Shown here one piece after another: positions 8,059 to 50,342 of a DNA stretch of 64,000 nucleotides (within the stretch, counting starts at the first letter, position 1; every line of letters begins with the position of its first letter). Both the position numbers and the translations under genes were made by a program. This stretch comes from an uncultured Planctomycetia bacterium (GTDB lineage Bacteria; Omnitrophota; Gorgyraeia; 2-02-FULL-51-18), in the NCBI GenBank assembly GCA_964373505.1, contig CAYJVC010000001.1:41630-105629 (forward strand). Direction: 5' to 3'. Under the pieces are notes generated by a model. It searched no databases. It saw only the letters and a program-made list of their open reading frames with translations, and was not told where the DNA came from.

Positions 8059-9113
8059 GCGTCAAAGTGGACTCCTTATTGAAGCAGACCTGCGAGTGGT
8101 TGAGGGGCACCGGGCCCAATTCCGAGATCGTCCTGAGCTCCCGCGTGCGGTTGGCAAGGAATCTCGAGAAGGCATCGTTTCCCCATTGGGCCACGAAAAA
8201 GCAGGAGAAGGAAACACTGGAGCTTCTGGATGCGGCGCTGCGGCACGTGGACCTCATGAAAGGGAGCTTGTTCGTCCGCATGACGGAGATCGATGACGTG
8301 GACAAGCAGTTCCTCTTGGAAAGGCATTTGGTGAGCCGTGAGCACATGATGCACGCGGAATCCAAGGCGGTCGTGATAGGTGATAAGGAAGTGATCAGCA
8401 TCATGATCAATGAAGAGGACCATCTGAGGATCCAGGTGATCCAGTCCGGGTTTAACCTGCAGGAATGTTGGCGCATCGCCAACCGCCTCGACGACGGGCT
8501 TTTAAAAAGAGTGAAGTTCGCGTTCCATCCGGAATGGGGTTATTTGACGACATGCCCGACCAACACGGGAACGGGCCTTCGGGCGTCTGTGATGCTGCAC
8601 CTGCCGGCGCTCGTGATGACCAAACAGATCTCGCGCGTGGTCCAGGCGATTTCGAAACTCGGCATGACGGCGCGCGGCCTTTACGGGGAGGGCACGGAGG
8701 CCGAAGGAAATTTCTTCCAGATATCCAACCAGGTCACGATGGGATCGCCTGAGGAGGACACGATCGATAACTTGGAGCGCATTATCCGCCAGGTGATCGG
8801 GCATGAGGAAAACGCGCGCAAGACCCTGATGAAACAGAATCGCGAGGTGCTTCAGGACAAGATCTGCCGCGCGAACGGCACTTTGAAAGCCGCGCACATT
8901 ATCAGCACCAAAGAGATGATGGGTCTGCTCTCTATGGTGAGACTTGGCGTGGACATGGGGGTGATCGCCGACATCGACCGCCGGGCTGTCAACGAGCTTT
9001 TTATTTTGACGCAACCGGCGCATTTGCAAAAGATCGAGGGGAAAATGCTCAGCTCCACGCAGCGCGACGTTAAAAGAGCAAATTTGATCCGTCGGCGTCT
9101 TGAGGGACGGTAG
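8055..9113 (+). CDS. mcsB: Protein arginine kinase McsB (ATP:guanido phosphotransferase)
   Basis: 352 aa. N-term ...GPNSEIVLSSRVRLARNLEKASFP, phosphagen-kinase catalytic CPTNTGTGLRASVMLHLPAL. Confidence 0.85.
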   Translation: MSVKVDSLLKQTCEWLRGTGPNSEIVLSSRVRLARNLEKASFPHWATKKQEKETLELLDAALRHVDLMKGSLFVRMTEIDDVDKQFLLERHLVSREHMMHAESKAVVIGDKEVISIMINEEDHLRIQVIQSGFNLQECWRIANRLDDGLLKRVKFAFHPEWGYLTTCPTNTGTGLRASVMLHLPALVMTKQISRVVQAISKLGMTARGLYGEGTEAEGNFFQISNQVTMGSPEEDTIDNLERIIRQVIGHEENARKTLMKQNREVLQDKICRANGTLKAAHIISTKEMMGLLSMVRLGVDMGVIADIDRRAVNELFILTQPAHLQKIEGKMLSSTQRDVKRANLIRRRLEGR

Positions 9114-9201: not shown

Positions 9202-11682
9202 ATGTTCAACAAATTTACGGAACGGGCCAGGAAAGTGATCCTGCTGGCCAAGCAGGAGGCCAAGCGTTTCAATCACGATTACATCGGCACCGAGCACATT
9301 TTGCTCGGGCTTTTACGCGAGGGTGAGGGTGTCGCGGCCGCGGTGCTTCAAAGCCTCGGCATGAATCTCAACAATATCCGGCTCGAAGTGGAAAAATTAG
9401 TACAGTTGGGGCCCGCCACCGTGGTGTCGGGTGACCTGCCTTTCACGCCGAAGGCCAAGAAGGTGATGGAGATCGCAATGGAGGAGGCCCGAAACCTCGG
9501 CCACAATTATATCGGCACTGAGCATTTGTTGCTGGGGCTCATTCGTGAAGGCGAAGGAGTCGCGAGCCAGGTTTTCATGAACATGGGCCTTGACCTTGAA
9601 AAGGTGCGGGAAGAAGTGATCAAGCTTTTGGGTTCCACGACCCCCGGTTCGCAATACGGCCCCGGGCCCGCTCAAGGGCCTACGCCTTCAGGGCCTCCTT
9701 CTTCCTCTAAGACTAAAACACCGGCGCTGGATGCGTTTGGACGCGACCTGACACGGCTTGCGCGCGATGGGAAATTAGATCCTGTGATCGGCCGTGACGA
9801 GGAGATCGACCGCGTGATGCAAACACTCTCGCGCCGCAGGAAAAATAACCCCGTGCTTCTCGGCGAGGCGGGTGTGGGAAAGTCCGCGATCGTCGAGGGC
9901 TTGGCGCAGAAGATCGTGAGCGGCGACGTGCCGGAAATCTTGAAAAATAAACGGCTCATCACTCTGGACCTGGCGCTCATGGTAGCCGGGACGAAGTACC
10001 GCGGGCAGTTCGAGGAACGCATCAAGGCCGTGATGGATGAGATCAAGCGCTCGGAAAATATCATCATGTTCGTGGATGAACTCCACACGCTCGTCGGCGC
10101 GGGCGGCGCGGAAGGCGCGATCGACGCCGCGAATATTCTGAAGCCCGCGCTGGCAAGGGGCGAGATCCAGTGCATCGGCGCGACGACATTCGACGAATAC
10201 CGCAAGTACATTGAAAAGGACACCGCGCTTGAGCGGAGGTTCCAGACGATCATGGTGGATCCGCCGTCGGTCGAGGAGACGATCCTCATCCTGAGAGGGC
10301 TTCGGGACAAGTACGAGGCGCACCACAAGGTAAAGATTACGGATATCGCGCTTGAGGCGGCCGCCAAGTTTTCGGACCGCTACATTGCTGGCCGATTTCT
10401 GCCGGACAAAGCGATCGACGTGATCGATGAGGCCGGCGCTTACGCGCGTCTTTCGACCCACACCACGCCTCAGGATGTAAAGGAGCTTGAGAAAAAACTC
10501 GAGCTCTTAAGGCGGGAGAAAGAAGACACGATCAAGGAGCAGGATTTCGAGAAAGCCGCGGCCTTGAGGGACCAGGAGCGCGAGATACGGCGGCAGCTGG
10601 ACAAGACCAAAAAGGAATGGATGGAGTCGCGATCGAAGATAGAGCTTGAGATAGGCGAGGAGGATATCGCTCGGGTCATCGCGAAGATCACAGGAATTCC
10701 GATCTCAAGGCTCGAGGAAAAAGAAACCTCGCGCTTGTTGCGTATGGAAGAGGAGATCAAGAAGCATGTGATCGGCCAGGATGAGGCGATCGCCGCGATT
10801 TCCCACGCGGTCCGCCGTTCGCGCGCGGGGCTCAAAGATCCCCGCCGGCCGATCGGTTCGTTCATTTTCCTGGGGCCCACCGGCGTCGGCAAGACGCTTT
10901 TGGCCAAGGCGCTCGCAGAGTTCATGTTCAACGATGAGAGCGCGCTCATCTCGTTCGATATGTCGGAATACATGGAGAAGTTCAACGTCTCGCGGCTCGT
11001 GGGCGCGCCGCCCGGCTACGTGGGCTACGAAGAGGGCGGCCAGTTGACCGAGAAAGTAAGGCGTCGTCCGTACTGCATTGTGCTTTTGGATGAGATCGAA
11101 AAAGCGCACCCGGACGTGTTCAACATGCTGCTTCAGGTGCTGGAAGAAGGTCGCTTGACGGACTCGCTGGGCCGAAAGGTCGATTTCCGGAACACGGTGC
11201 TGATCATGACGTCCAACATTGGCGCGGAACTTCTGAAGAAACAGGGCAGCATCGGTTTTAAAGCGCAAGAGCAGTCCACCGACTACAAGGAAATGAAAAC
11301 GCGTCTCTTGGAAGAGACCAAGAAGGTCTTCAAACCTGAGTTCATCAACCGCGTGGACGATATCATCGTCTTTCAGAAACTCACCAAAGAGGACCTCGAC
11401 AAGATCATCGATATTGAGGTTGAAAATTTGAGAAAGAGACTCGGTGAGCGGGGCATTGAGATCCAACTCGATCAGAAGGCCAAAGATTTTCTGATCGCCC
11501 GAGGTTTTGACCTGATGTACGGAGCGCGCCCGCTGAAGCGCACGATCCAGCGTTACTTGGAGGATCCGCTCGCCGAAGAGATCATTTCAAAGAAGATCCG
11601 CACGAATGAAATGGTTCAGGTCACGGTCAAAGACGACGACCACCTCGTTTTTGAGCAGAGCGCGAAGATTTCAACATCCTAA
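9202..11682 (+). CDS. clpC: ATP-dependent Clp protease ATP-binding subunit ClpC (two Clp_N repeats, two AAA+ modules, UVR linker)
   Basis: 826 aa. Clp_N repeats, Walker A GEAGVGKS and GPTGVGKT, middle-domain UVR motif. Confidence 0.9.
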
Positions 11683-17203: not shown

Positions 17204-17654
17204 TATTCACCCACTGAAAAAGGGTCGGAAACTGCTGTTGGGCGGGGTCCGGATACCGTTCGCGAAAGGCCTTGGCGGGCATTCGGACGGGGACGTGTTG
17301 CTCCACGCCGTCGTCGACGCGGTGCTGGGAGCGATGAGCGCGGGGGACATCGGAGAACATTTTCCAAGCCAAGACAGCCGTACTCGGGGCGCGAACAGCC
17401 TTTTATTCGTGAAAAAGGCCGTGGAAATTCTAAAGCGCAGAAAGCTGAAGATCGCGAACATCGACGCCGTGCTGATCGCGGAAGCGCCGAAGCTTTCAGG
17501 TTATAAAGCCGCGATCCAAAAGGCGGTGGCCCGAGCTTTCGGGATCACGGTTTCTCAAGTAGGCATCAAAGCCAAAACGAACGAGGGTTTCGGCCCTATC
17601 GGAAAAAATGAGGCGATCACCTGTTTCGCGGTGGCAAGCCTTAGGAGCGCGTGA
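17181..17654 (+). CDS. ispF: 2-C-methyl-D-erythritol 2,4-cyclodiphosphate synthase
   Basis: [10 protein letters not shown]..., [11 protein letters not shown] motifs. 157 aa. Confidence 0.9.
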
Positions 17655-17655
17655 G

Positions 17656-18381
17656 ATGGAAATGTTAAAAACTATTCTGATCCTGGTCTTTATTTTGATC
17701 GTCGCCAAGCTATTCGTGTACAAGCTATTCTTTAAGGAAGAAATCCGGGCGGCGCTTGAGCGGGACCCCGCCGCCACGAGCGCTCTGTCGGTGATCCTGA
17801 CCTACCCGGGGCTGCACGCTCTTTGTTATTACCGCGTCGGGCACGCGCTTTATGGACGAGGCCTTCCCTTTTTTGCGAGGGTGATCTCTCAGCTCGGCCG
17901 CTGGTTGACCGGCGTTGAGATCCATTCAGGAGCCAAGATCGGCAAGGGCCTCTTTATCGATCACGGGGCAGGGGTCGTGATCGGGGAAACTTCCATTATC
18001 GGGGACAATGTGACGCTCTTCCAGGGCGTGACGTTGGGCGGCACGGGCAAGCAGAAGGGCAAGCGCCATCCGACACTCGGGAACAACGTAGTCGTGGGCG
18101 CCGGCGCCAAGGTTTTAGGGGACATCCACATTGGTGACAATGTGAGCGTGGGCGCCAATGCGGTGGTGGTGCGCGATGTGCCGGCCAACTCCACGGTCGT
18201 AGGCGTTCCCGGGCGGATCACAAGCCGCGAGGGCAAGAAGGTGCCCGGCATCAACCTGGACCATACGAGCCTTCCGGACCCCCTGACGCAGGCGCTTGAG
18301 AAGCTGCAGCATGAGATCGACAAGATCGAGAATGAGCTCAAGGATTTTCACGGCGAGGGCAAGGACAAAAAGCCTAAGTAG
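17656..18381 (+). CDS. cysE: Serine O-acetyltransferase (hexapeptide-repeat). Start uncertain (ATG 17656 or GTG ~17716)
   Basis: N-terminal SATase helix domain ([12 protein letters not shown]...), left-handed beta-helix hexapeptides ([22 protein letters not shown]...). Confidence 0.8.
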
Positions 18382-18594
18382 TTACTGCTCCAGATTCCGT
18401 ACATGAAGAAAACCCCCTTCTCCGCTTAACGGACTTTTTCTCGCGTGGATCCTTGAGTAAAGGGTGGGGAGTCCCCTCGCCAAAAATCGGAATCGCCGCG
18501 ATGGACGTAGACTACATTGAAGATCAGAGGTTTTCTTGATCTGGCGTCAGAATTCCAAGCATCTTTTTCTATAACTTCCCTACCTTAAAGTAGA

Positions 18595-18600
18595 TATAAT
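18595..18600 (+). promoter_or_regulatory. Perfect -10 box TATAAT 7 nt upstream of cysS ATG (possible leaderless transcript)
   Basis: tagaTATAATactcaacATG. No SD between -10 and ATG. -35 weak. Confidence 0.3.
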
Positions 18601-18607
18601 ACTCAAC

Positions 18608-20071
18608 ATGGCGCTGAAAATCTATAACTCGCTTACGAATCAGAAAGAAGAATTTAAGCCGCTGAATGCACCTGATGTGAAAATGTATGTTTGCGGCCCG
18701 ACGGTTTATGACGAGCCGCACATCGGGCATCTACGATCGGCACATGTATTCCAGGTCATAAGGAATTATCTGAAATACAAAAAGTACAATGTTACATTTG
18801 TGCGGAATGTTACAGACATAGATGACAAAATCATTGATAAAGCAAGGGAGCTCAAGAAAGCAGACCTAAATAATGCCGTTAAAGAGGTATCCGAAGTATA
18901 TTACAAAAAATATAAGGATGCGCTTTATGCGTTGATGGCTGACATAAAAGATCCACCCGACCAGGAGCCGAAAGCCACCGATCATATCCAAGACATGGTG
19001 CTATTGATCAAGGGCTTGATAGGAAAAGGCTATGCTTACGCTATCAATGGCGACGTATATTTTGAGGTCGATAAATTTGCCGAGTACGGAAAGCTTTCCC
19101 ACCAGAAGAAGGAAATGATGATGGATGGAGTGCGGATCGACCCCAATGAGAGAAAAAAAAGTCCGCTCGATTTCGCTTTATGGAAAGAGGCGAAGGAGGA
19201 AGAGCCATCTTGGCAGGGACCGGTAGAAGGTAAGTTCGGCAGACCTGGCTGGCATATCGAATGTTCGGCCATGAGCATGAAGCACCTCGGCGGCACATTG
19301 GATATTCACGGAGGCGGGCGCGATTTGATTTTTCCTCATCATGAAAATGAGATCGCTCAATCTGAGGCAAATACGGGGGGGATTTTTGCCAGGTATTGGC
19401 TGCATCACGGGCTTGTCACCATCAACGGACAGAAAATGTCAAAATCATTGAAGAACTATTTGACACTTAGTCAAATTAAAAATAATTATCCCTACGGCGA
19501 AGAATTGCTAAAACTACTTTTTCTTAATACTCACTACCGGGCCCCTTTGGATTTTTCTGACGATCGGATGGCAATGCAGGAGTCCATATTTCATAAATTG
19601 CGAGTTTTTTTTGACACGGTTCAGCAATTGAACATTCAGAAAATAGTGAACTTAGTGAAAAATAGCGAGTTGGAGAATATAGAAGCAAATTTTATGAACG
19701 CCATGGATGATGATTTTAATACCCCACTGGCTTTTTCAAAGCTGCAGGAGATGATGCATTATTCGTGGAAGAGTAATGATCCAACCGTCATGATGGCAGC
19801 GGCTGAGAAAATAAGCCGTCTTGGTAAACATGTATTCTCGCTTTTTACAGGGTGGGATATATCTGCCTTCTTTAACCCTGATCGAGGTGTTAGGGATAAT
19901 AAAGATCTTAAGCTTGACAGAGAAGTTCAACCCGAAATTGAAAGACGATATGAAGCGAGGAAAAAGAAGGATTTCAAACTGGCCGACGAAATTCGTGAAA
20001 ATTTGCGAGTTCGCTATCAGCTTGAACTCGTTGATTGGAAAGACGGTCGAACTACCTGGAGAAGTTTATGA
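18608..20071 (+). CDS. cysS: Cysteinyl-tRNA synthetase (class I)
   Basis: HIGH (HIGHLRSAHVFQV) and KMSKS motifs, Zn-binding Cys. The gene is markedly AT-rich relative to its neighbours. Confidence 0.95.
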   Translation: MALKIYNSLTNQKEEFKPLNAPDVKMYVCGPTVYDEPHIGHLRSAHVFQVIRNYLKYKKYNVTFVRNVTDIDDKIIDKARELKKADLNNAVKEVSEVYYKKYKDALYALMADIKDPPDQEPKATDHIQDMVLLIKGLIGKGYAYAINGDVYFEVDKFAEYGKLSHQKKEMMMDGVRIDPNERKKSPLDFALWKEAKEEEPSWQGPVEGKFGRPGWHIECSAMSMKHLGGTLDIHGGGRDLIFPHHENEIAQSEANTGGIFARYWLHHGLVTINGQKMSKSLKNYLTLSQIKNNYPYGEELLKLLFLNTHYRAPLDFSDDRMAMQESIFHKLRVFFDTVQQLNIQKIVNLVKNSELENIEANFMNAMDDDFNTPLAFSKLQEMMHYSWKSNDPTVMMAAAEKISRLGKHVFSLFTGWDISAFFNPDRGVRDNKDLKLDREVQPEIERRYEARKKKDFKLADEIRENLRVRYQLELVDWKDGRTTWRSL

Positions 20072-20697
20072 GCGAAAGGGGTATTTTGATCACATTTGAG
20101 GGCGGGGAAGGCAGTGGCAAGTCCACTCAGGTGAAGCTGCTTTACCGCTATTTGAGGAAACGTGGTCGCCGTGTTTTCTTGACGCGTGAGCCGGGCGGCA
20201 CGAAGATCAGCGACAAGATCCGTAAAATCCTGCTGGATAAAAAACACAATCGGATGACGCCACTTTGCGAAACGCTGTTGTACATGGCAAGCCGCGCGCA
20301 GTTGGCCGAGGAAGTGATACGCCCGAAGTTTAAGCGGGGTTTTATCGTGCTGTGCGACCGGTGGCTCGACGCGACACTGGCTTACCAAGGGTACGGCGCC
20401 GGCGTGGATATCCGCTGGATTCAGTCTTTGGGCCGGACCGCGACCGCGGGCATCAAGCCTAAATTGACCGTTTTTCTGGACCTGCCGGTCGAGTTGGGGT
20501 TGCGCCGCGCCAAAAACCACGGGCCCGCGGACCGGATGGAAAGGAAGGCGCTTTTGTTCCATAAAAAAGTACGCGCCGGTTATCTTGCCATTGCTAAGAA
20601 AGAACCAGGCCGCATACGCCGTGTTCTGGTAAGGCCCAGGGATAGCGCGCACGAAGTATTTGAGAAAGTGAAAAAGGCGGTTCGCCGTGTCATTTAG
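20068..20697 (+). CDS. tmk: Thymidylate kinase
   Basis: ILITFEGGEGSGKSTQ P-loop, TREPGGT, LID region. ATGA-type overlap with cysS stop. Confidence 0.9.
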   Translation: MSERGILITFEGGEGSGKSTQVKLLYRYLRKRGRRVFLTREPGGTKISDKIRKILLDKKHNRMTPLCETLLYMASRAQLAEEVIRPKFKRGFIVLCDRWLDATLAYQGYGAGVDIRWIQSLGRTATAGIKPKLTVFLDLPVELGLRRAKNHGPADRMERKALLFHKKVRAGYLAIAKKEPGRIRRVLVRPRDSAHEVFEKVKKAVRRVI

Positions 20698-21628: not shown

Positions 21629-23187
21629 AGTGCTACCTGACGACCCCGCTTTATTACGTGAATTCGAAGCCACACATCGGGCATTCGTACACGAATATCG
21701 CGGCCGATACGCTGGCGCGCTTCAAGCGGCTCCAAGGGAATGACGTGCTTTTCCTGACAGGCACCGACGAGCATGGTCAAAAAATAGTCAAGGCGGCGCA
21801 AAGCGCCGGCATGGAGCCGGGCCCCTTCACGGATAAGATGTCGATGACATTCCGCGATCTTTGGAAAACGCTCGGCATTTCCCACGACGATTTTATCCGG
21901 ACGACGGAGCCGAGACACCGGGAGGCCGTGCGCCACGTTTGGACAGAGCTTCAAAGAAAAGGAGACATTTATACGGCGGCCTATAAGGGCTATTACTGTA
22001 CGCCCTGTGAGACATTTTTAGCCGACGAGTACGTGCGCCAGCAAAAGGCGGCGGGGCAGGAAATCGTTTGCCCGGACTGCAAGCGTCCGGTCGAGCGGAT
22101 TGAGGAGAATAATTTCTTTTTTAAAACATCACCATACCAGGACTGGTTGATCGGCTGCGTCGAGAAAAACGAGCCGATGAAGGTCCTCCCCGACACGCGC
22201 CGCAACGAAATACTCGGGTTTTTGCGCACGAACAAACTGGAAGACCTTTGTATTTCAAGGCCGAAGAGCCGGCTCGCCTGGGGTATCGAGTCGCCGCTTT
22301 CACAGGAGCACGTGACCTACGTCTGGTTCGACGCGCTCATCAATTACATTTCCGCCTGCGGTTACGGGGACCCCAAAGCCGCAGAGAGGTTCCAAAAATG
22401 GTGGCCCGCCGATGTGCACGTCATCGGCAAGGACATCCTGCGCCAACATGCGGTTTACTGGCCGATCCTGCTGCACGCGCTCGGGCTCGACCTTCCAAGA
22501 CTGATCTTTGCACACGGTTGGTGGGTGCAAGGCGGCGAGAAAATGTCAAAATCCAAGGGTAATGTTATAGATCCCGCCGAGATAGTAAGGTGTTACGGCG
22601 TTGACGCGTACCGTTATTTTCTCTTGAGTGAAACACCCTTTGGGCAAGACGGTACTTTTAGCGAGGAAGCTTTGACCCAGCGTTTTAACCGTGATCTTGG
22701 CAATGACCTGGGAAATCTTTTGCACAGAACACTGACTATGTGTGAAAAATACTTTGAGGGGGAGATCCCGAAAGGGATTTCAGCCCGATGCGACGGCCAG
22801 CTTCGGCAGAGCGTGAATGAACTCGCGCCGGCGCTCGGACCGATGATGGAAAGGCTTGCGTTTTCAGAAGCGCTTTCGGTGGTCTGGTCGCTCGTGAACC
22901 AAGCCAACAAGTCGATAGAAGCAGCGGCGCCATGGACTTTGTACAAAGAAGGTAAAACCCAAGAGCTTAAAGCCGCCGTTGTGTCATGGCTTGAAGCATT
23001 GAAGGCCATTGCGCAGGCGGTGTGGCCTTTTATGCCGGCTACCGGCGAAGCCATTTGGAACCAGCTCGGCATAAAGGAAAAACTTTGGAAAGAGCCGTTT
23101 AAGGAAAACCTATGGGGTTTTTTTGAAAAGGGCGGCCGCATTCAAAAGGGTGCGCCGCTTTTTCCCCGCATAGAAACTAAGAAATAA
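21625..23187 (+). CDS. metG: Methionyl-tRNA synthetase (short form, no C-terminal tRNA-binding extension)
   Basis: VKCYLTTPLYYVNSKPHIGHSYT (HIGH region), KMSKS (KMSKSKGN), Zn knuckle CTPCE..CPDC. ORF caller start 21541 is an N-terminal over-extension through element E3. Confidence 0.9.
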   Translation: MKCYLTTPLYYVNSKPHIGHSYTNIAADTLARFKRLQGNDVLFLTGTDEHGQKIVKAAQSAGMEPGPFTDKMSMTFRDLWKTLGISHDDFIRTTEPRHREAVRHVWTELQRKGDIYTAAYKGYYCTPCETFLADEYVRQQKAAGQEIVCPDCKRPVERIEENNFFFKTSPYQDWLIGCVEKNEPMKVLPDTRRNEILGFLRTNKLEDLCISRPKSRLAWGIESPLSQEHVTYVWFDALINYISACGYGDPKAAERFQKWWPADVHVIGKDILRQHAVYWPILLHALGLDLPRLIFAHGWWVQGGEKMSKSKGNVIDPAEIVRCYGVDAYRYFLLSETPFGQDGTFSEEALTQRFNRDLGNDLGNLLHRTLTMCEKYFEGEIPKGISARCDGQLRQSVNELAPALGPMMERLAFSEALSVVWSLVNQANKSIEAAAPWTLYKEGKTQELKAAVVSWLEALKAIAQAVWPFMPATGEAIWNQLGIKEKLWKEPFKENLWGFFEKGGRIQKGAPLFPRIETKK

Positions 23188-48559: not shown

Positions 48560-49320
48560 AATTTTTAAAAAAAAGAATCTTTCTCGGAGTTCTTTTTATT
48601 GCGATCTTTATTTTATTCGCCCGCGCTCACACCGAGGTGCCCATTTTGATGTACCACCACGTGGGGGACGCAACGGACAAATCTTCGGCGAATGTTTCCA
48701 CGGCGGTCTTTGAATCGCAGATGGAGTTCCTCAAGATCCATCGTTACCGCGTGATGCCGCTTGAGGAGCTCTTGGAACGCCTTCGCCGAAAGGAACCACT
48801 GCCTCCGAATACGGTATCGCTCACTTTCGACGACGGGAATCTGGACAATTTGAAGAACGCGTTCCCGATCTTAAGAAAGATGCGGTTTCCGGCGACAATT
48901 TTCATGATCACCCATAATATCAATCAAGAGGGTTGGCTGTCCGAAGAGGATTTGAAAATCCTGGACGGCGCCGGCATTGCGATCGGAAGCCATACGGCGG
49001 ATCACGCGTATCTGCCGGGCCTTTCAAGGAAGGAGGCGCTTCGTGAATTGCAGGATTCACGGAACCGTTTGGAAAAGATCCTGGGCCACCCCGTATTCTT
49101 GTTCAGCTACCCGGCAGGCGGTTTTAACGAAGAGGTGAAATCGCTCGTGAAAGAAGCCGGTTATCACGGCGCGGTCACCACGAACCGGGGCAGAGACCGC
49201 CACGATCCTTATGCGCTGCGCCGGATCAAGATCACCGAAGGCGGCGGAAGCCTGTTCAATTTCTGGGCCAAAACAAGCGGATTATACCGCCTTGGGAAAT
49301 CGGTCAAAGAGCCCTCATGA
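48556..49320 (+). CDS. Polysaccharide deacetylase (NodB homology domain) with N-terminal signal/anchor
   Basis: TFDDG, HTADHAYL motifs. ATG 48556 overlaps upstream stop (ATGA). Confidence 0.75.
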   Translation: MKFLKKRIFLGVLFIAIFILFARAHTEVPILMYHHVGDATDKSSANVSTAVFESQMEFLKIHRYRVMPLEELLERLRRKEPLPPNTVSLTFDDGNLDNLKNAFPILRKMRFPATIFMITHNINQEGWLSEEDLKILDGAGIAIGSHTADHAYLPGLSRKEALRELQDSRNRLEKILGHPVFLFSYPAGGFNEEVKSLVKEAGYHGAVTTNRGRDRHDPYALRRIKITEGGGSLFNFWAKTSGLYRLGKSVKEPS

Positions 49321-50342
49321 TCGCGATCGGAAAAAGGATCCTCGTTGTCGGCGCCCATTGGCTGGGGGATGTGCTTTTTTCGACGCCGGCGCTGCGGGCG
49401 CTGCGCAAAAGCCTTCCCGAAGCCTATATTGCCTGCGCGGTTCCTCCGCGCTGCGCGCCGATACTTCGGAACAACGCCTTCTTGAATGAAGTGGTTCCTT
49501 GGGAGGACAAGCTATTTTTCTGGACCCCGCTGAGATCCCTGAAAGTCATAAGATCGCTCAAGGAAAAGCGATTTGATACAGCCATTTTTTTTCATCGGTC
49601 CAAAACGAAAGCGCTTGTGGCAATGCTCTCCGGAATAGGGCAGCGCATAGGTTATGAAGCGCCCTTCCGGAAAAAATTTTTGACAGTGTGTCTGCCGCCT
49701 CCCGAAGACCCGCCGCATCGCACGGACTATTTTCTCGGTTTGATACAGGCGCTTGGGTTGCCGGCGACCGGGCGGACGCCTGACTTTTTCCCGGATCCGG
49801 AAGCGGCGGGGGAGCTGGAACGGGTGTTGGCGCGGAGGGGCGTGGGCGCGGACGAGGCCTACGTGGTCGTGCACGCGGGCGGCAATTGGGAGCTGAAACG
49901 TTGGCCGGTCGAACATTTTGTGCGCTGGATCGGTCTCTTCCTTGAACGATACCCGATGAAAGTGGTGCTCTGCGGCGCGGCTCCGGAGCGCGCACTTTCC
50001 GAGACGATTATTTCCCGTTTTCCGGGAGGCCGTGTGGTCTCGCTTTGCGGCGAGACATCCCTGGACGCGCTCGCGCACCTGCTTAAAAAGTCGAAGCTTC
50101 TTCTGTCGAACGATTCGGGGCCGATCCATCTGGCTGCGAGCCAGGGAGCCAGGATCCTGGGCCTTTTTGGACCCACGTCGGCCGGTCAAACAGGCCCCAT
50201 TTCAAACGCACCGATGCGACTTTTGCAGAAAGATGTGGGCTGCGAAGTGCCTTGCTATTTTCGCTCCTGCCGCTCGCGCGTGTGCATGGAATGGCTCGGG
50301 CCGGAAGAGGCGTTTTCAGAGGCCGCGGAACTTCTCCAATGA
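49317..50342 (+). CDS. ADP-heptose:LPS heptosyltransferase (GT9)
   Basis: RILVVGAHWLGDVLFSTPALRAL N-term, C-terminal DSGPIHLAAS motif. Confidence 0.75.
   Translation: MIAIGKRILVVGAHWLGDVLFSTPALRALRKSLPEAYIACAVPPRCAPILRNNAFLNEVVPWEDKLFFWTPLRSLKVIRSLKEKRFDTAIFFHRSKTKALVAMLSGIGQRIGYEAPFRKKFLTVCLPPPEDPPHRTDYFLGLIQALGLPATGRTPDFFPDPEAAGELERVLARRGVGADEAYVVVHAGGNWELKRWPVEHFVRWIGLFLERYPMKVVLCGAAPERALSETIISRFPGGRVVSLCGETSLDALAHLLKKSKLLLSNDSGPIHLAASQGARILGLFGPTSAGQTGPISNAPMRLLQKDVGCEVPCYFRSCRSRVCMEWLGPEEAFSEAAELLQ

Follow-up and report, generated by a model that had tools for sequence, protein, structure and literature searches.

An AT-rich cysteinyl-tRNA synthetase gene, uncoupled from host relatedness, between cysE and tmk in a clade of Omnitrophota

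Genes for aminoacyl-tRNA synthetases (aaRSs) are taken to belong to the best-conserved part of the core genome, and phylogenies rely on them as stable markers. The gene analyzed here, cysS, encodes cysteinyl-tRNA synthetase (CysRS) and lies between cysE and tmk on a 64,000-nucleotide (nt) stretch of contig CAYJVC010000001.1 (positions 41,630 to 105,629 of the forward strand, assembly GCA_964373505.1), hereafter referred to as the window. It forms an island of low guanine-plus-cytosine content (GC) between flanks of normal composition, and in related genomes the gene in the same slot is likewise AT-rich and does not follow the relatedness of its hosts. With moderate confidence, these observations are attributed, for the window copy, to overwriting of cysS in place by homologous recombination with a divergent, AT-rich allele from the same clade.

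Several described systems show parts of this pattern. Omelchenko et al. reportedly described, in Genome Biology in 2003, how genes of conserved operons are displaced in situ (xenologous displacement). In E. coli and Salmonella, gnd is situated beside the O-antigen rfb cluster and is a housekeeping gene that hitch-hikes with a hypervariable, low-GC cassette, while pbp2x and pbp2b of Streptococcus pneumoniae and penA of Neisseria are mosaic genes that arose by recombination with divergent alleles. Transfer of aaRS genes in general is well documented (PMC5388404). For aaRSs, Andam, Williams and Gogarten described homeoalleles, divergent forms with the same function that are swapped among related lineages, and replacement through recombination in conserved flanks, with retention of synteny, is sometimes seen (PMC3191353). 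Homeoalleles were described for TyrRS, ThrRS, SerRS and LeuRS, each as two discrete ancient types, and no case involving CysRS is given there (PMC3191353).

Composition of cysS in the window

The locus consists of the following features:

17608 to 18381, + strand: cysE, serine O-acetyltransferase (TIGR01172, 240.9 bits), upstream flank, GC 0.584
18382 to 18507, + strand: 5' part of the cysE-cysS spacer, GC 0.53, host-like, not conserved
18508 to 18607, + strand: AT-rich, promoter-proximal part of the spacer, GC 0.35, starting at segmentation breakpoint 18508
18584 to 18603, + strand: conserved 20-mer cttaaagtagatataatact, holding a TATAAT box at 18595-18600
18608 to 20071, + strand: cysS, class-I CysRS of 487 amino acids (aa), the low-GC island proper
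20068 to 20071, + strand: ATGA overlap of the cysS stop and tmk start, read from the sequence, 3' edge of the island
20068 to 20697, + strand: tmk, dTMP kinase (TIGR00041, 165.9 bits), downstream flank, GC 0.557

An earlier note on this DNA, made from the sequence alone, had reported a low-GC island at cysS and its leader, and measurement showed this island to be real and an extreme outlier of the 64-kb window. GC amounted to 43.0% across 18382-20071 and to 42.6% in cysS, with 38.3% in the opening 60 nt of the gene (38% in the note), and returned to host-like values in cysE (58.4%) and tmk (55.7%), as had been stated. The minimum over all 1500-nt segments was 0.421, at position 18501 (mean 0.555, standard deviation (sd) 0.022), and 1690-nt segments away from the cysS locus never fell below 0.522. 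Maximum-likelihood segmentation with two breakpoints placed the low-GC segment at 18508-20097 (GC 0.42 inside, 0.57 outside). The island thus matches the bounds of cysS, as proposed, with an extension of about 100 nt upstream; AT-richness of the leader held for these final nucleotides (18508-18607, 35% GC) and not for 18382-18507, which at 53% is host-like.

Among all open reading frames (ORFs) of the window, cysS ranked lowest in GC (0.426) and in GC at the first, second and third codon positions (GC1 0.508, GC2 0.303, GC3 0.467). The other 55 ORFs had a mean GC of 56% and a mean GC3 of 0.694 (range 0.56-0.77), against which cysS had z-scores of -7.5 (GC) and -5.5 (GC3); no gene of comparable AT-richness, which the earlier note had considered as a sign against its proposal, was present in the window. 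These neighbor ORFs came from simple longest-ORF calling and include a few on the wrong strand, which leaves total GC untouched and shifts GC3 slightly. At 4-fold degenerate sites, GC was 49% in cysS and 76% in other genes, and among 57 genes cysS had the synonymous codon choice that departed most from a host model (z -2.3). In tetranucleotides, its correlation with the host was 0.23, compared with a mean of 0.47 ± 0.11 (z -2.2), a moderate signal in that 7 of 163 segments scored below cysS. Each of the composition checks proposed earlier (GC and GC3, codon usage, tetranucleotides) therefore marked cysS as atypical.

The deviation was not confined to synonymous sites. The balance of GARP (Gly, Ala, Arg, Pro) minus FYMINK (Phe, Tyr, Met, Ile, Asn, Lys) residues was -0.136 in the window CysRS and +0.022 in methionyl-tRNA synthetase (MetRS). 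By codon block, GC3 along cysS was 0.54/0.40/0.59/0.51/0.46/0.50/0.32, at a host value of 0.69. GC at codon positions 1 and 2 (GC12) and GC3 fell on the equilibrium line (+0.6 sd), without a sign of amelioration, and taken together the codon positions fitted a genome at equilibrium with about 44-46% GC. At 4-fold sites of cysS, A and T were gained about equally, without a sign of the strand-asymmetric mutation that transcription or deamination would leave. Hallmarks of mobility, such as an integrase, a tRNA gene, direct repeats or IS elements, were not found at the island borders in the window, where repeats were at chance level.

Host relatedness, recurrence and recombination at the cysS slot

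The host was identified as an Omnitrophota bacterium by its MetRS, encoded 1.5 kb downstream, and by other flanking proteins; the best MetRS matches, at up to 76% identity, were labelled Candidatus Omnitrophota. In a search of about 5.8 billion proteins, the best CysRS match was from the same phylum and only 56% identical. An exact query with the window CysRS matched no recorded contig. The top CysRS matches were Omnitrophota proteins on contigs with the same gene order, and many contigs with both CysRS and MetRS matches keep the block mcsB-clpC-hyp-mlaE-mlaF-mlaD-PIN-ispD-ispF-cysE-cysS-tmk-holB-metG, in which hyp is a hypothetical gene. A metagenome scan seeded with the lineage-specific PIN-domain neighbor yielded 80 further loci (related loci are cited below by L numbers), and the host clade was set by a PIN identity of at least 73%. 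In neighbor-joining (NJ) trees built with simple distances (42 loci), this clade was monophyletic at 100/100 bootstrap for both PIN and CysRS, and the other major clades also agreed between the two trees. The window CysRS shared 50-56% identity with alleles of the host clade and 42-51% with those of sampled lower-GC Omnitrophota clades. Since CysRS branches within the host clade at 100/100, its source was not a foreign lineage, and the proposal of a xenologous replacement from an unrelated low-GC lineage, made in the earlier note, is not upheld. The agreement with the host lineage, which the note had taken as a point against replacement, extends to the level of clades; within the host clade the CysRS tree was incongruent.

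This incongruence took the form of a loss of coupling. Outside the host clade, CysRS identity closely followed PIN identity (r 0.94, slope 0.90), whereas inside it the relation was absent (r -0.06) and CysRS identity was flat at 0.52-0.62. Across pairs of clade members, CysS was the one gene of the 17 in the block whose identity did not correlate with the remainder (r 0.03, slope 0.02), the other 16 having r 0.43-0.95. Uncoupling was seen in every segment of CysRS. Identity to clade alleles was about 70% in the catalytic domain (residues 1-265) and about 35% (mean) in the anticodon-binding part at the C-terminus (331-487). In the 14 clade loci with cysS between cysE and tmk, mean pairwise CysRS identity was 0.57. 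Rather than two discrete ancient classes, many roughly equidistant alleles (52-62% identity) were found, nearly one per genome and each at most about 60% identical to any other; L089/L090 carried the only distinct cysS type with normal GC.

Comparison of the window with its closest relative, L088, illustrates the effect. Identities were 0.93 for ClpC, 0.89 for CysE, 0.85 for MlaE, MlaF and PIN, 0.72 for Tmk and 0.65 for IspD; CysS, with an expected value of 0.73, reached 0.53. The MetRS tree joined the window with c44619/c21846 at 94% bootstrap, a grouping recovered in 2% of the replicates of the CysRS tree. The latter placed the window loosely with other long-branch, AT-rich alleles, which may reflect long-branch or compositional attraction. 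Discordance of cysS was also encountered outside the host clade, between L127 and L130 (PIN 0.99, CysRS 0.73) and between L148 and L137/L149/L151 (PIN 84%, CysRS 55%); the GC deficit in these cases is small because the hosts themselves have 39-43% GC, with 39-40% for L127 and L130.

AT-richness of cysS recurred across relatives. In 50 of 51 Omnitrophota loci with a complete cysS, its GC was below the mean of its neighbors (mean difference -0.046), and in 22 of the 51 it was the lowest-GC gene; as some of these loci are related or duplicated (L085/L095, L128/L129), they do not represent 51 independent events. The deficit in the window (-0.133) was among the extremes, together with L088 (-0.176), L085/L095 (-0.133), L084 (-0.121), L093 (-0.110) and L107 (-0.099). 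A proxy based on amino-acid composition, which reached r 0.93-0.94 when calibrated against the loci with DNA, gave negative values for 31 of 36 further contigs (mean -0.051). In L088, cysS was low in GC along the whole gene, with a GC3 of 0.30 versus 0.64. In L084, L086, L091 and L097 the deficit was mosaic, with about 260 host-like N-terminal codons followed by about 200 C-terminal codons with a GC3 of 0.2-0.45. A general tendency of bacterial cysS to be AT-rich was ruled out by 65 loci from other bacterial phyla, in which the difference between cysS and its neighbors was -0.006 ± 0.017 (minimum -0.061); these controls were obtained in a scan with the CysRS protein that was dominated by the universal HHENEIAQ motif and brought up mostly unrelated phyla. 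AT-richness as a property of any fast-evolving gene was ruled out by other divergent genes of the block (hyp, Rce1 and HolB), whose mean identities of 0.47-0.50 were below that of CysS, and which remained coupled to host phylogeny and had a GC3 of about 0.65.

Direct signs of recombination were found in L085 and L091. Their flanks are 85-90% identical at the nucleotide level, and homology stops about 34 nt before the cysE stop and restarts at the tmk start. Over its first 840 nt cysS is 70% identical, and beyond that it is unalignable. At conserved residues, a fraction of 0.76-0.86 of the codons was identical in the flanking genes (PIN, Tmk, HolB) and of 0.79-0.94 in the first 50 codons of cysS, with an abrupt fall to about 0.2-0.5 over the remainder of the gene, so that breakpoints were placed at approximately codon 47 of cysS and at the tmk start. 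Such an intragenic step in synonymous divergence is the signature of recombination with a divergent allele. L085 was equally discordant with its near relative L087 (MetG 0.82, Tmk 0.78, HolB 0.67, CysS 0.60).

The spacer between cysE and cysS proved to be highly variable. It measures 226 nt in the window and 80, 104, 274, 288, 389, 2329 and 5119 nt in other genomes of the clade. The cargo in L093 (12936-18011) comprises genes for a DEAD-box helicase and a fatty-acid desaturase, a hypothetical gene and a toxin-antitoxin pair (RelE plus a helix-turn-helix (HTH)/MqsA-like protein), and that in L090 (13227-15230) a hypothetical gene of 33% GC, an FRG-domain gene of 39% GC and an XRE-type HTH gene; these insertions identify the slot as a hot spot for integration. 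The cysS gene of L088 lies between two copies, inverted relative to each other, of a hairpin of about 170 nt (8272-8442 and 9972-10143) that resembles a miniature inverted-repeat transposable element (MITE). The copies share a 117-nt core at 96% identity, each has terminal inverted repeats of about 40 nt (DNA fold z -4.3), and the AT-rich stretch of L088 is the segment between them. This element was not found in the window or at other loci. Between cysS and tmk, L085 carries a 220-nt insertion (10206-10425) that recurs unchanged in L095 and had been assigned a 74-aa ORF. Most of it can pair with itself (10230-10402, self-complementary at about 74%), so it probably represents not a gene but a palindromic element, either mobile or structured.

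A search of all spacers for leftovers of a former cysS or tmk gave nothing significant. In the host-GC spacer 3' of cysS in L087, positions 1993-2073 show in-frame similarity to the C-terminal helix of CysRS (41% over 27 aa); with an E-value of 0.01 and 171 queries, the match is non-significant after multiple testing. It may be a decayed remnant of the 3' end of an earlier cysS.

Origin of the window allele

Replacement by an allele of the same clade, the reading favored above, leaves in-place replacement with preservation of the cysE-cysS-tmk order, as the earlier note had envisaged, as the most likely history of the window copy. We infer that its breakpoints lie in the conserved flanks. According to the proposed mechanism, cysS would be part of a short hypervariable islet that reaches from cysE to the conserved 5' end of tmk and includes the upstream spacer, which in relatives collects inserted DNA (toxin-antitoxin genes, an FRG-domain gene, MITE-like hairpins). 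Alleles too divergent to pair would cause exchange of the islet to resolve only in the flanks or in the conserved 5' end of cysS, with crossovers near the cysE 3' end or in the spacer and in the P-loop-coding region at the 5' end of tmk. The latter, where the downstream crossover would probably have taken place, is strongly conserved in nucleotide sequence in the window-L088 pair and in the L085-L091 pair alike. From its position between the hot spot and tmk, cysS would be co-transferred as a multi-allelic, "homeoallele"-like cassette.

A number of results weigh against this reading. No protein more than 56% identical to the window allele, and thus no donor or near relative, was present among the approximately 5.8 billion searched, and a sliding scan for mosaic ancestry against 13 clade alleles found no segment of the window CysRS that was specifically close; a donor search with the C-terminal domain alone returned fragments of at most 34% identity. 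Between the window and L088, third-position identity in a codon-level comparison was 0.44-0.54, in the flanks and in cysS alike, and this saturation of synonymous sites makes a breakpoint invisible in the window itself. The 20-mer upstream of cysS is identical to that of L088 at 19 of 20 nt despite a CysRS identity of 53%, which argues for vertical inheritance of at least the 5' edge. The pattern of one allele per genome could represent very fast divergence in place, and attraction among long-branch or AT-rich alleles in the NJ trees is possible. Finally, clade alleles of cysS, at 36-57% GC (median about 44%), are AT-richer than every sampled host of the clade (measured host GC 46-61%; predicted minimum for the 120 nearest MetRS relatives 0.44), so that exchange among the sampled hosts alone is insufficient to account for them.

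The recurrence of the anomaly, the lack of a donor and the lack of a host of such AT-richness together render a recent import from a low-GC genome incomplete as a model. Three possible sources of the AT-richness are a reservoir of AT-rich DNA outside the sample, in low-GC members of the clade or in mobile elements; the loss of a force that raises GC, for instance biased gene conversion, where a locus is unable to recombine internally; and a local mutational process. As a tentative extension of replacement within the clade, the islet in this clade of ultra-small Omnitrophota may hold a large pool of divergent, AT-rich CysRS alleles that is shuffled by recombination and in which the anticodon-binding half changes fastest.

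The best-surviving alternative, which we regard as unlikely though of real weight, is vertical inheritance with a gene-specific, AT-biased acceleration that proceeded until identity saturated near 55%. It could arise if the locus, being too divergent to recombine, escaped GC-biased gene conversion or selection, if the anticodon-binding domain were under relaxed constraint, or if mutation had a hot spot there. The position of CysRS inside the host clade and the promoter box common to the window and its sister L088 would follow directly, as would the lack of a donor for the alleles of the window, L088, L084 and L093, whose best matches are 56-58% identical. In its favor, the GC deficit increased as the allele became more orphan-like (Pearson r 0.40, p 0.004), and the C-terminal domain was always both the most AT-rich and the most divergent part. 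The equilibrium composition of the window gene (with L088, L107 and L093 having a GC3 under expectation) and an allele pool AT-richer than any sampled host point in the same direction. However, the abrupt switch in L085/L091 at about codon 47 would require a local rate at least 10-100 times that of the flanks, with a sharp boundary inside the gene, and hyp, Rce1 and HolB, although equally or more divergent, have a GC3 of 0.65-0.66 and are host-coupled. Furthermore, 4-fold sites lack a strand-asymmetric mutational signature, and no mechanism is known that would target a single housekeeping gene. Replacement and acceleration in place are not mutually exclusive.

Selection for AT-rich, rare codons that tune the expression of a low-abundance enzyme from a leaderless mRNA appears improbable. 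It would be in line with the poorest fit to host codon usage of the 57 genes, with an unusual putative promoter whose box adjoins the ATG without a Shine-Dalgarno sequence, and with the persistence of the deficit throughout the clade. It does not explain why codon positions 1 and 2 and the amino acids are shifted as well (GARP minus FYMINK -0.136), why the shift reaches into the non-coding spacer or why L084, L086 and L091 have mosaic genes with host-like N-terminal halves; it leaves the phylogenetic uncoupling unaccounted for, and the 65 loci from other bacteria showed no such trend.

A recent, unameliorated xenologous displacement from an unrelated low-GC lineage, either another phylum or a distant low-GC class of Omnitrophota, is very improbable. 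The strong deficit in GC, GC3 and amino-acid composition and codon positions consistent with a genome of 44-46% GC are what such an event would leave, and horizontal transfer of aaRS genes has precedent (PMC5388404). Yet all best matches are syntenic Omnitrophota, CysRS and the host marker agree in their trees at the level of clades (100/100), and the sampled low-GC Omnitrophota clades are less similar to the window CysRS (42-51%) than is the host clade (50-56%). No Omnitrophota-type CysRS was found on viral contigs in IMG/VR, where the best matches reached only 42-45% identity, and the occurrence of the anomaly in nearly all relatives excludes a single event. An assembly or binning chimera, with the cysS of a co-occurring low-GC organism between host flanks, is the least credible explanation, for although the contig, of 106,992 nt, is metagenome-assembled and related Omnitrophota share samples (L091, L095 and L098 all come from Ga0080064), the reading frames run on unbroken and meet tmk in an exact ATGA overlap, same-slot islands occur in many independent NCBI, ENA and JGI assemblies, and an aa identity of about 55% leaves no shared k-mers for joins at both gene edges.

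Viewed as replacement by clade alleles, the locus shares with the homeoalleles an essential aaRS whose divergent forms have one function and one syntenic position, and a distribution that departs from the organismal tree yet is confined to an exchange group (here one Omnitrophota clade). Replacement would likewise pass through conserved flanking genes, without coexistence of the two forms, as the breakpoints in L085/L091 suggest. It differs in forming a continuum with almost one allele per genome (52-60% identity), in breakpoints that can be intragenic and give rise to mosaics, and in being systematically AT-richer than its hosts. As in in situ displacement, a gene in a conserved string is replaced by a homologue of other ancestry with retention of gene order, but where distant donors are stressed there, the source of cysS would lie within the host clade and the event would have recurred many times. 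With gnd and rfb the locus has in common a core gene next to an insertion and recombination hot spot, extreme allelic diversity, a discordant phylogeny, AT-rich hot-spot DNA and conserved flanks for homologous exchange; unlike them, the hot spot in the window is empty (a 226-nt spacer), cysS is itself AT-rich, and no selective agent of the surface-antigen type is evident. The abrupt intragenic switches from low to saturated divergence in an essential gene recall pbp2x, pbp2b and penA, for which, unlike cysS, there are a known selective agent (beta-lactams) and known donors (commensal species).

Promoter region, gene product and implications

Upstream of cysS, a spacing of 7 nt separates the TATAAT box at 18595-18600 from the ATG, and L081, L082, L093, L086, L097 and L090 have TAtAAT or TTTAAT at equal distance to theirs. 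No Shine-Dalgarno-like 4-mer was found upstream of the cysS ATG. The box is predicted to be the promoter of a leaderless or near-leaderless cysS mRNA, and its recurrence in sequence suggests leaderless cysS mRNAs across this Omnitrophota clade. The claim in the earlier note of a leader with its own promoter elements is thus borne out in part, by the conserved box, while a consensus promoter scan of the leader called no promoter, not even at the TATAAT box. The 226-nt leader contains no terminator-like site, had no Rfam match at the gathering score (a permissive search returned only sroD, E 6.1), showed no significant structure when folded as a whole (z -0.14) and, in its 18382-18507 part, could not be aligned with the spacers of L088, L081 and L082. 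No T-box, riboswitch, attenuator or other structured cis-regulatory leader was found in this way.

The window cysS is predicted from its sequence to encode an intact and functional class-I CysRS. TIGR00435 matched nearly the full length (residues 3-485, 461.9 bits, cut-off 340) and PF01406 scored 372.6 bits; with HIGH at residue 38 and KMSKS at 276, the earlier description of a complete enzyme holds. CGPT (residue 29), HIEC (216) and HENE (245, in HHENE) are present in contexts that, by analogy with E. coli CysRS, we take to be those of the Zn ligands. The match to the anticodon-binding domain PF09190 (DALR-2) was partial (residues 361-385, 29.4 bits, profile positions 1-25 of 57). No second CysRS-like gene was found in the window, in which cysS is single-copy, and no tRNA genes were found in its 64 kb. 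The cysS stop codon TGA (20069-20071) overlaps the tmk ATG at 20068, from which translational coupling of the two genes is predicted. The same 4-nt overlap occurs in L081, L082 and L086, and among relatives the junction extends to +516 nt (L084).

Several observations concern neighboring or similar genes. The metG ORF as called begins at a TTG (21541), 90 nt upstream of the conserved MetRS N-terminus and overlapping holB; its true start is probably near 21631. In L083 (1-250, at a contig end), the 3' end of cysE matches in two frames (3-116 and 110-217), which indicates a frameshift, due either to a sequencing error or to cysE being a pseudogene. The only long stretch of the window without a + strand ORF is 48560-50251 (1692 nt, GC 0.56), which holds a - strand ORF (49512-50189), the remainder being uniformly + strand, tightly packed genes. 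In an uncultivated viral genome (UViG) from IMG/VR (L182, 1-2789), a full-length host cysS of an unrelated bacterium is followed after about 140 nt by a tyrosine integrase gene and then by phage lysis and tail genes. The same cysS match stands at the start of about 50 IMG/VR contigs of this kind (L182-L234), and in that bacterium prophages probably attach repeatedly at the site directly 3' of cysS.

In-place replacement or aberrant evolution of an aaRS gene is a known type of event. A synthetase that is multi-allelic and persistently AT-rich across a clade, in a gene-specific manner, was not found described in the literature searched and appears to be new. Across the clade, cysS is the least conserved and compositionally most aberrant gene of a 17-gene block, and it should be dropped from marker sets and from composition-based contamination filters for metagenome-assembled genomes of Omnitrophota. 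If the tentatively proposed allele pool exists, it would imply diversifying selection on CysRS, for instance by a toxin directed at CysRS or tRNA-Cys, a phage factor or a host interaction, or alternatively a force on composition, of which GC-biased gene conversion is an example, that passes over loci whose divergence prevents recombination. If cysS is indeed exchanged as a recombination cassette, these uncultivated nanobacteria would provide a natural system for the replacement of an essential gene without a two-copy intermediate. The locus would then bear on the reach of "biased" transfer within groups, and may allow mutation bias, selection and biased gene conversion to be separated in AT-rich, exchangeable DNA.

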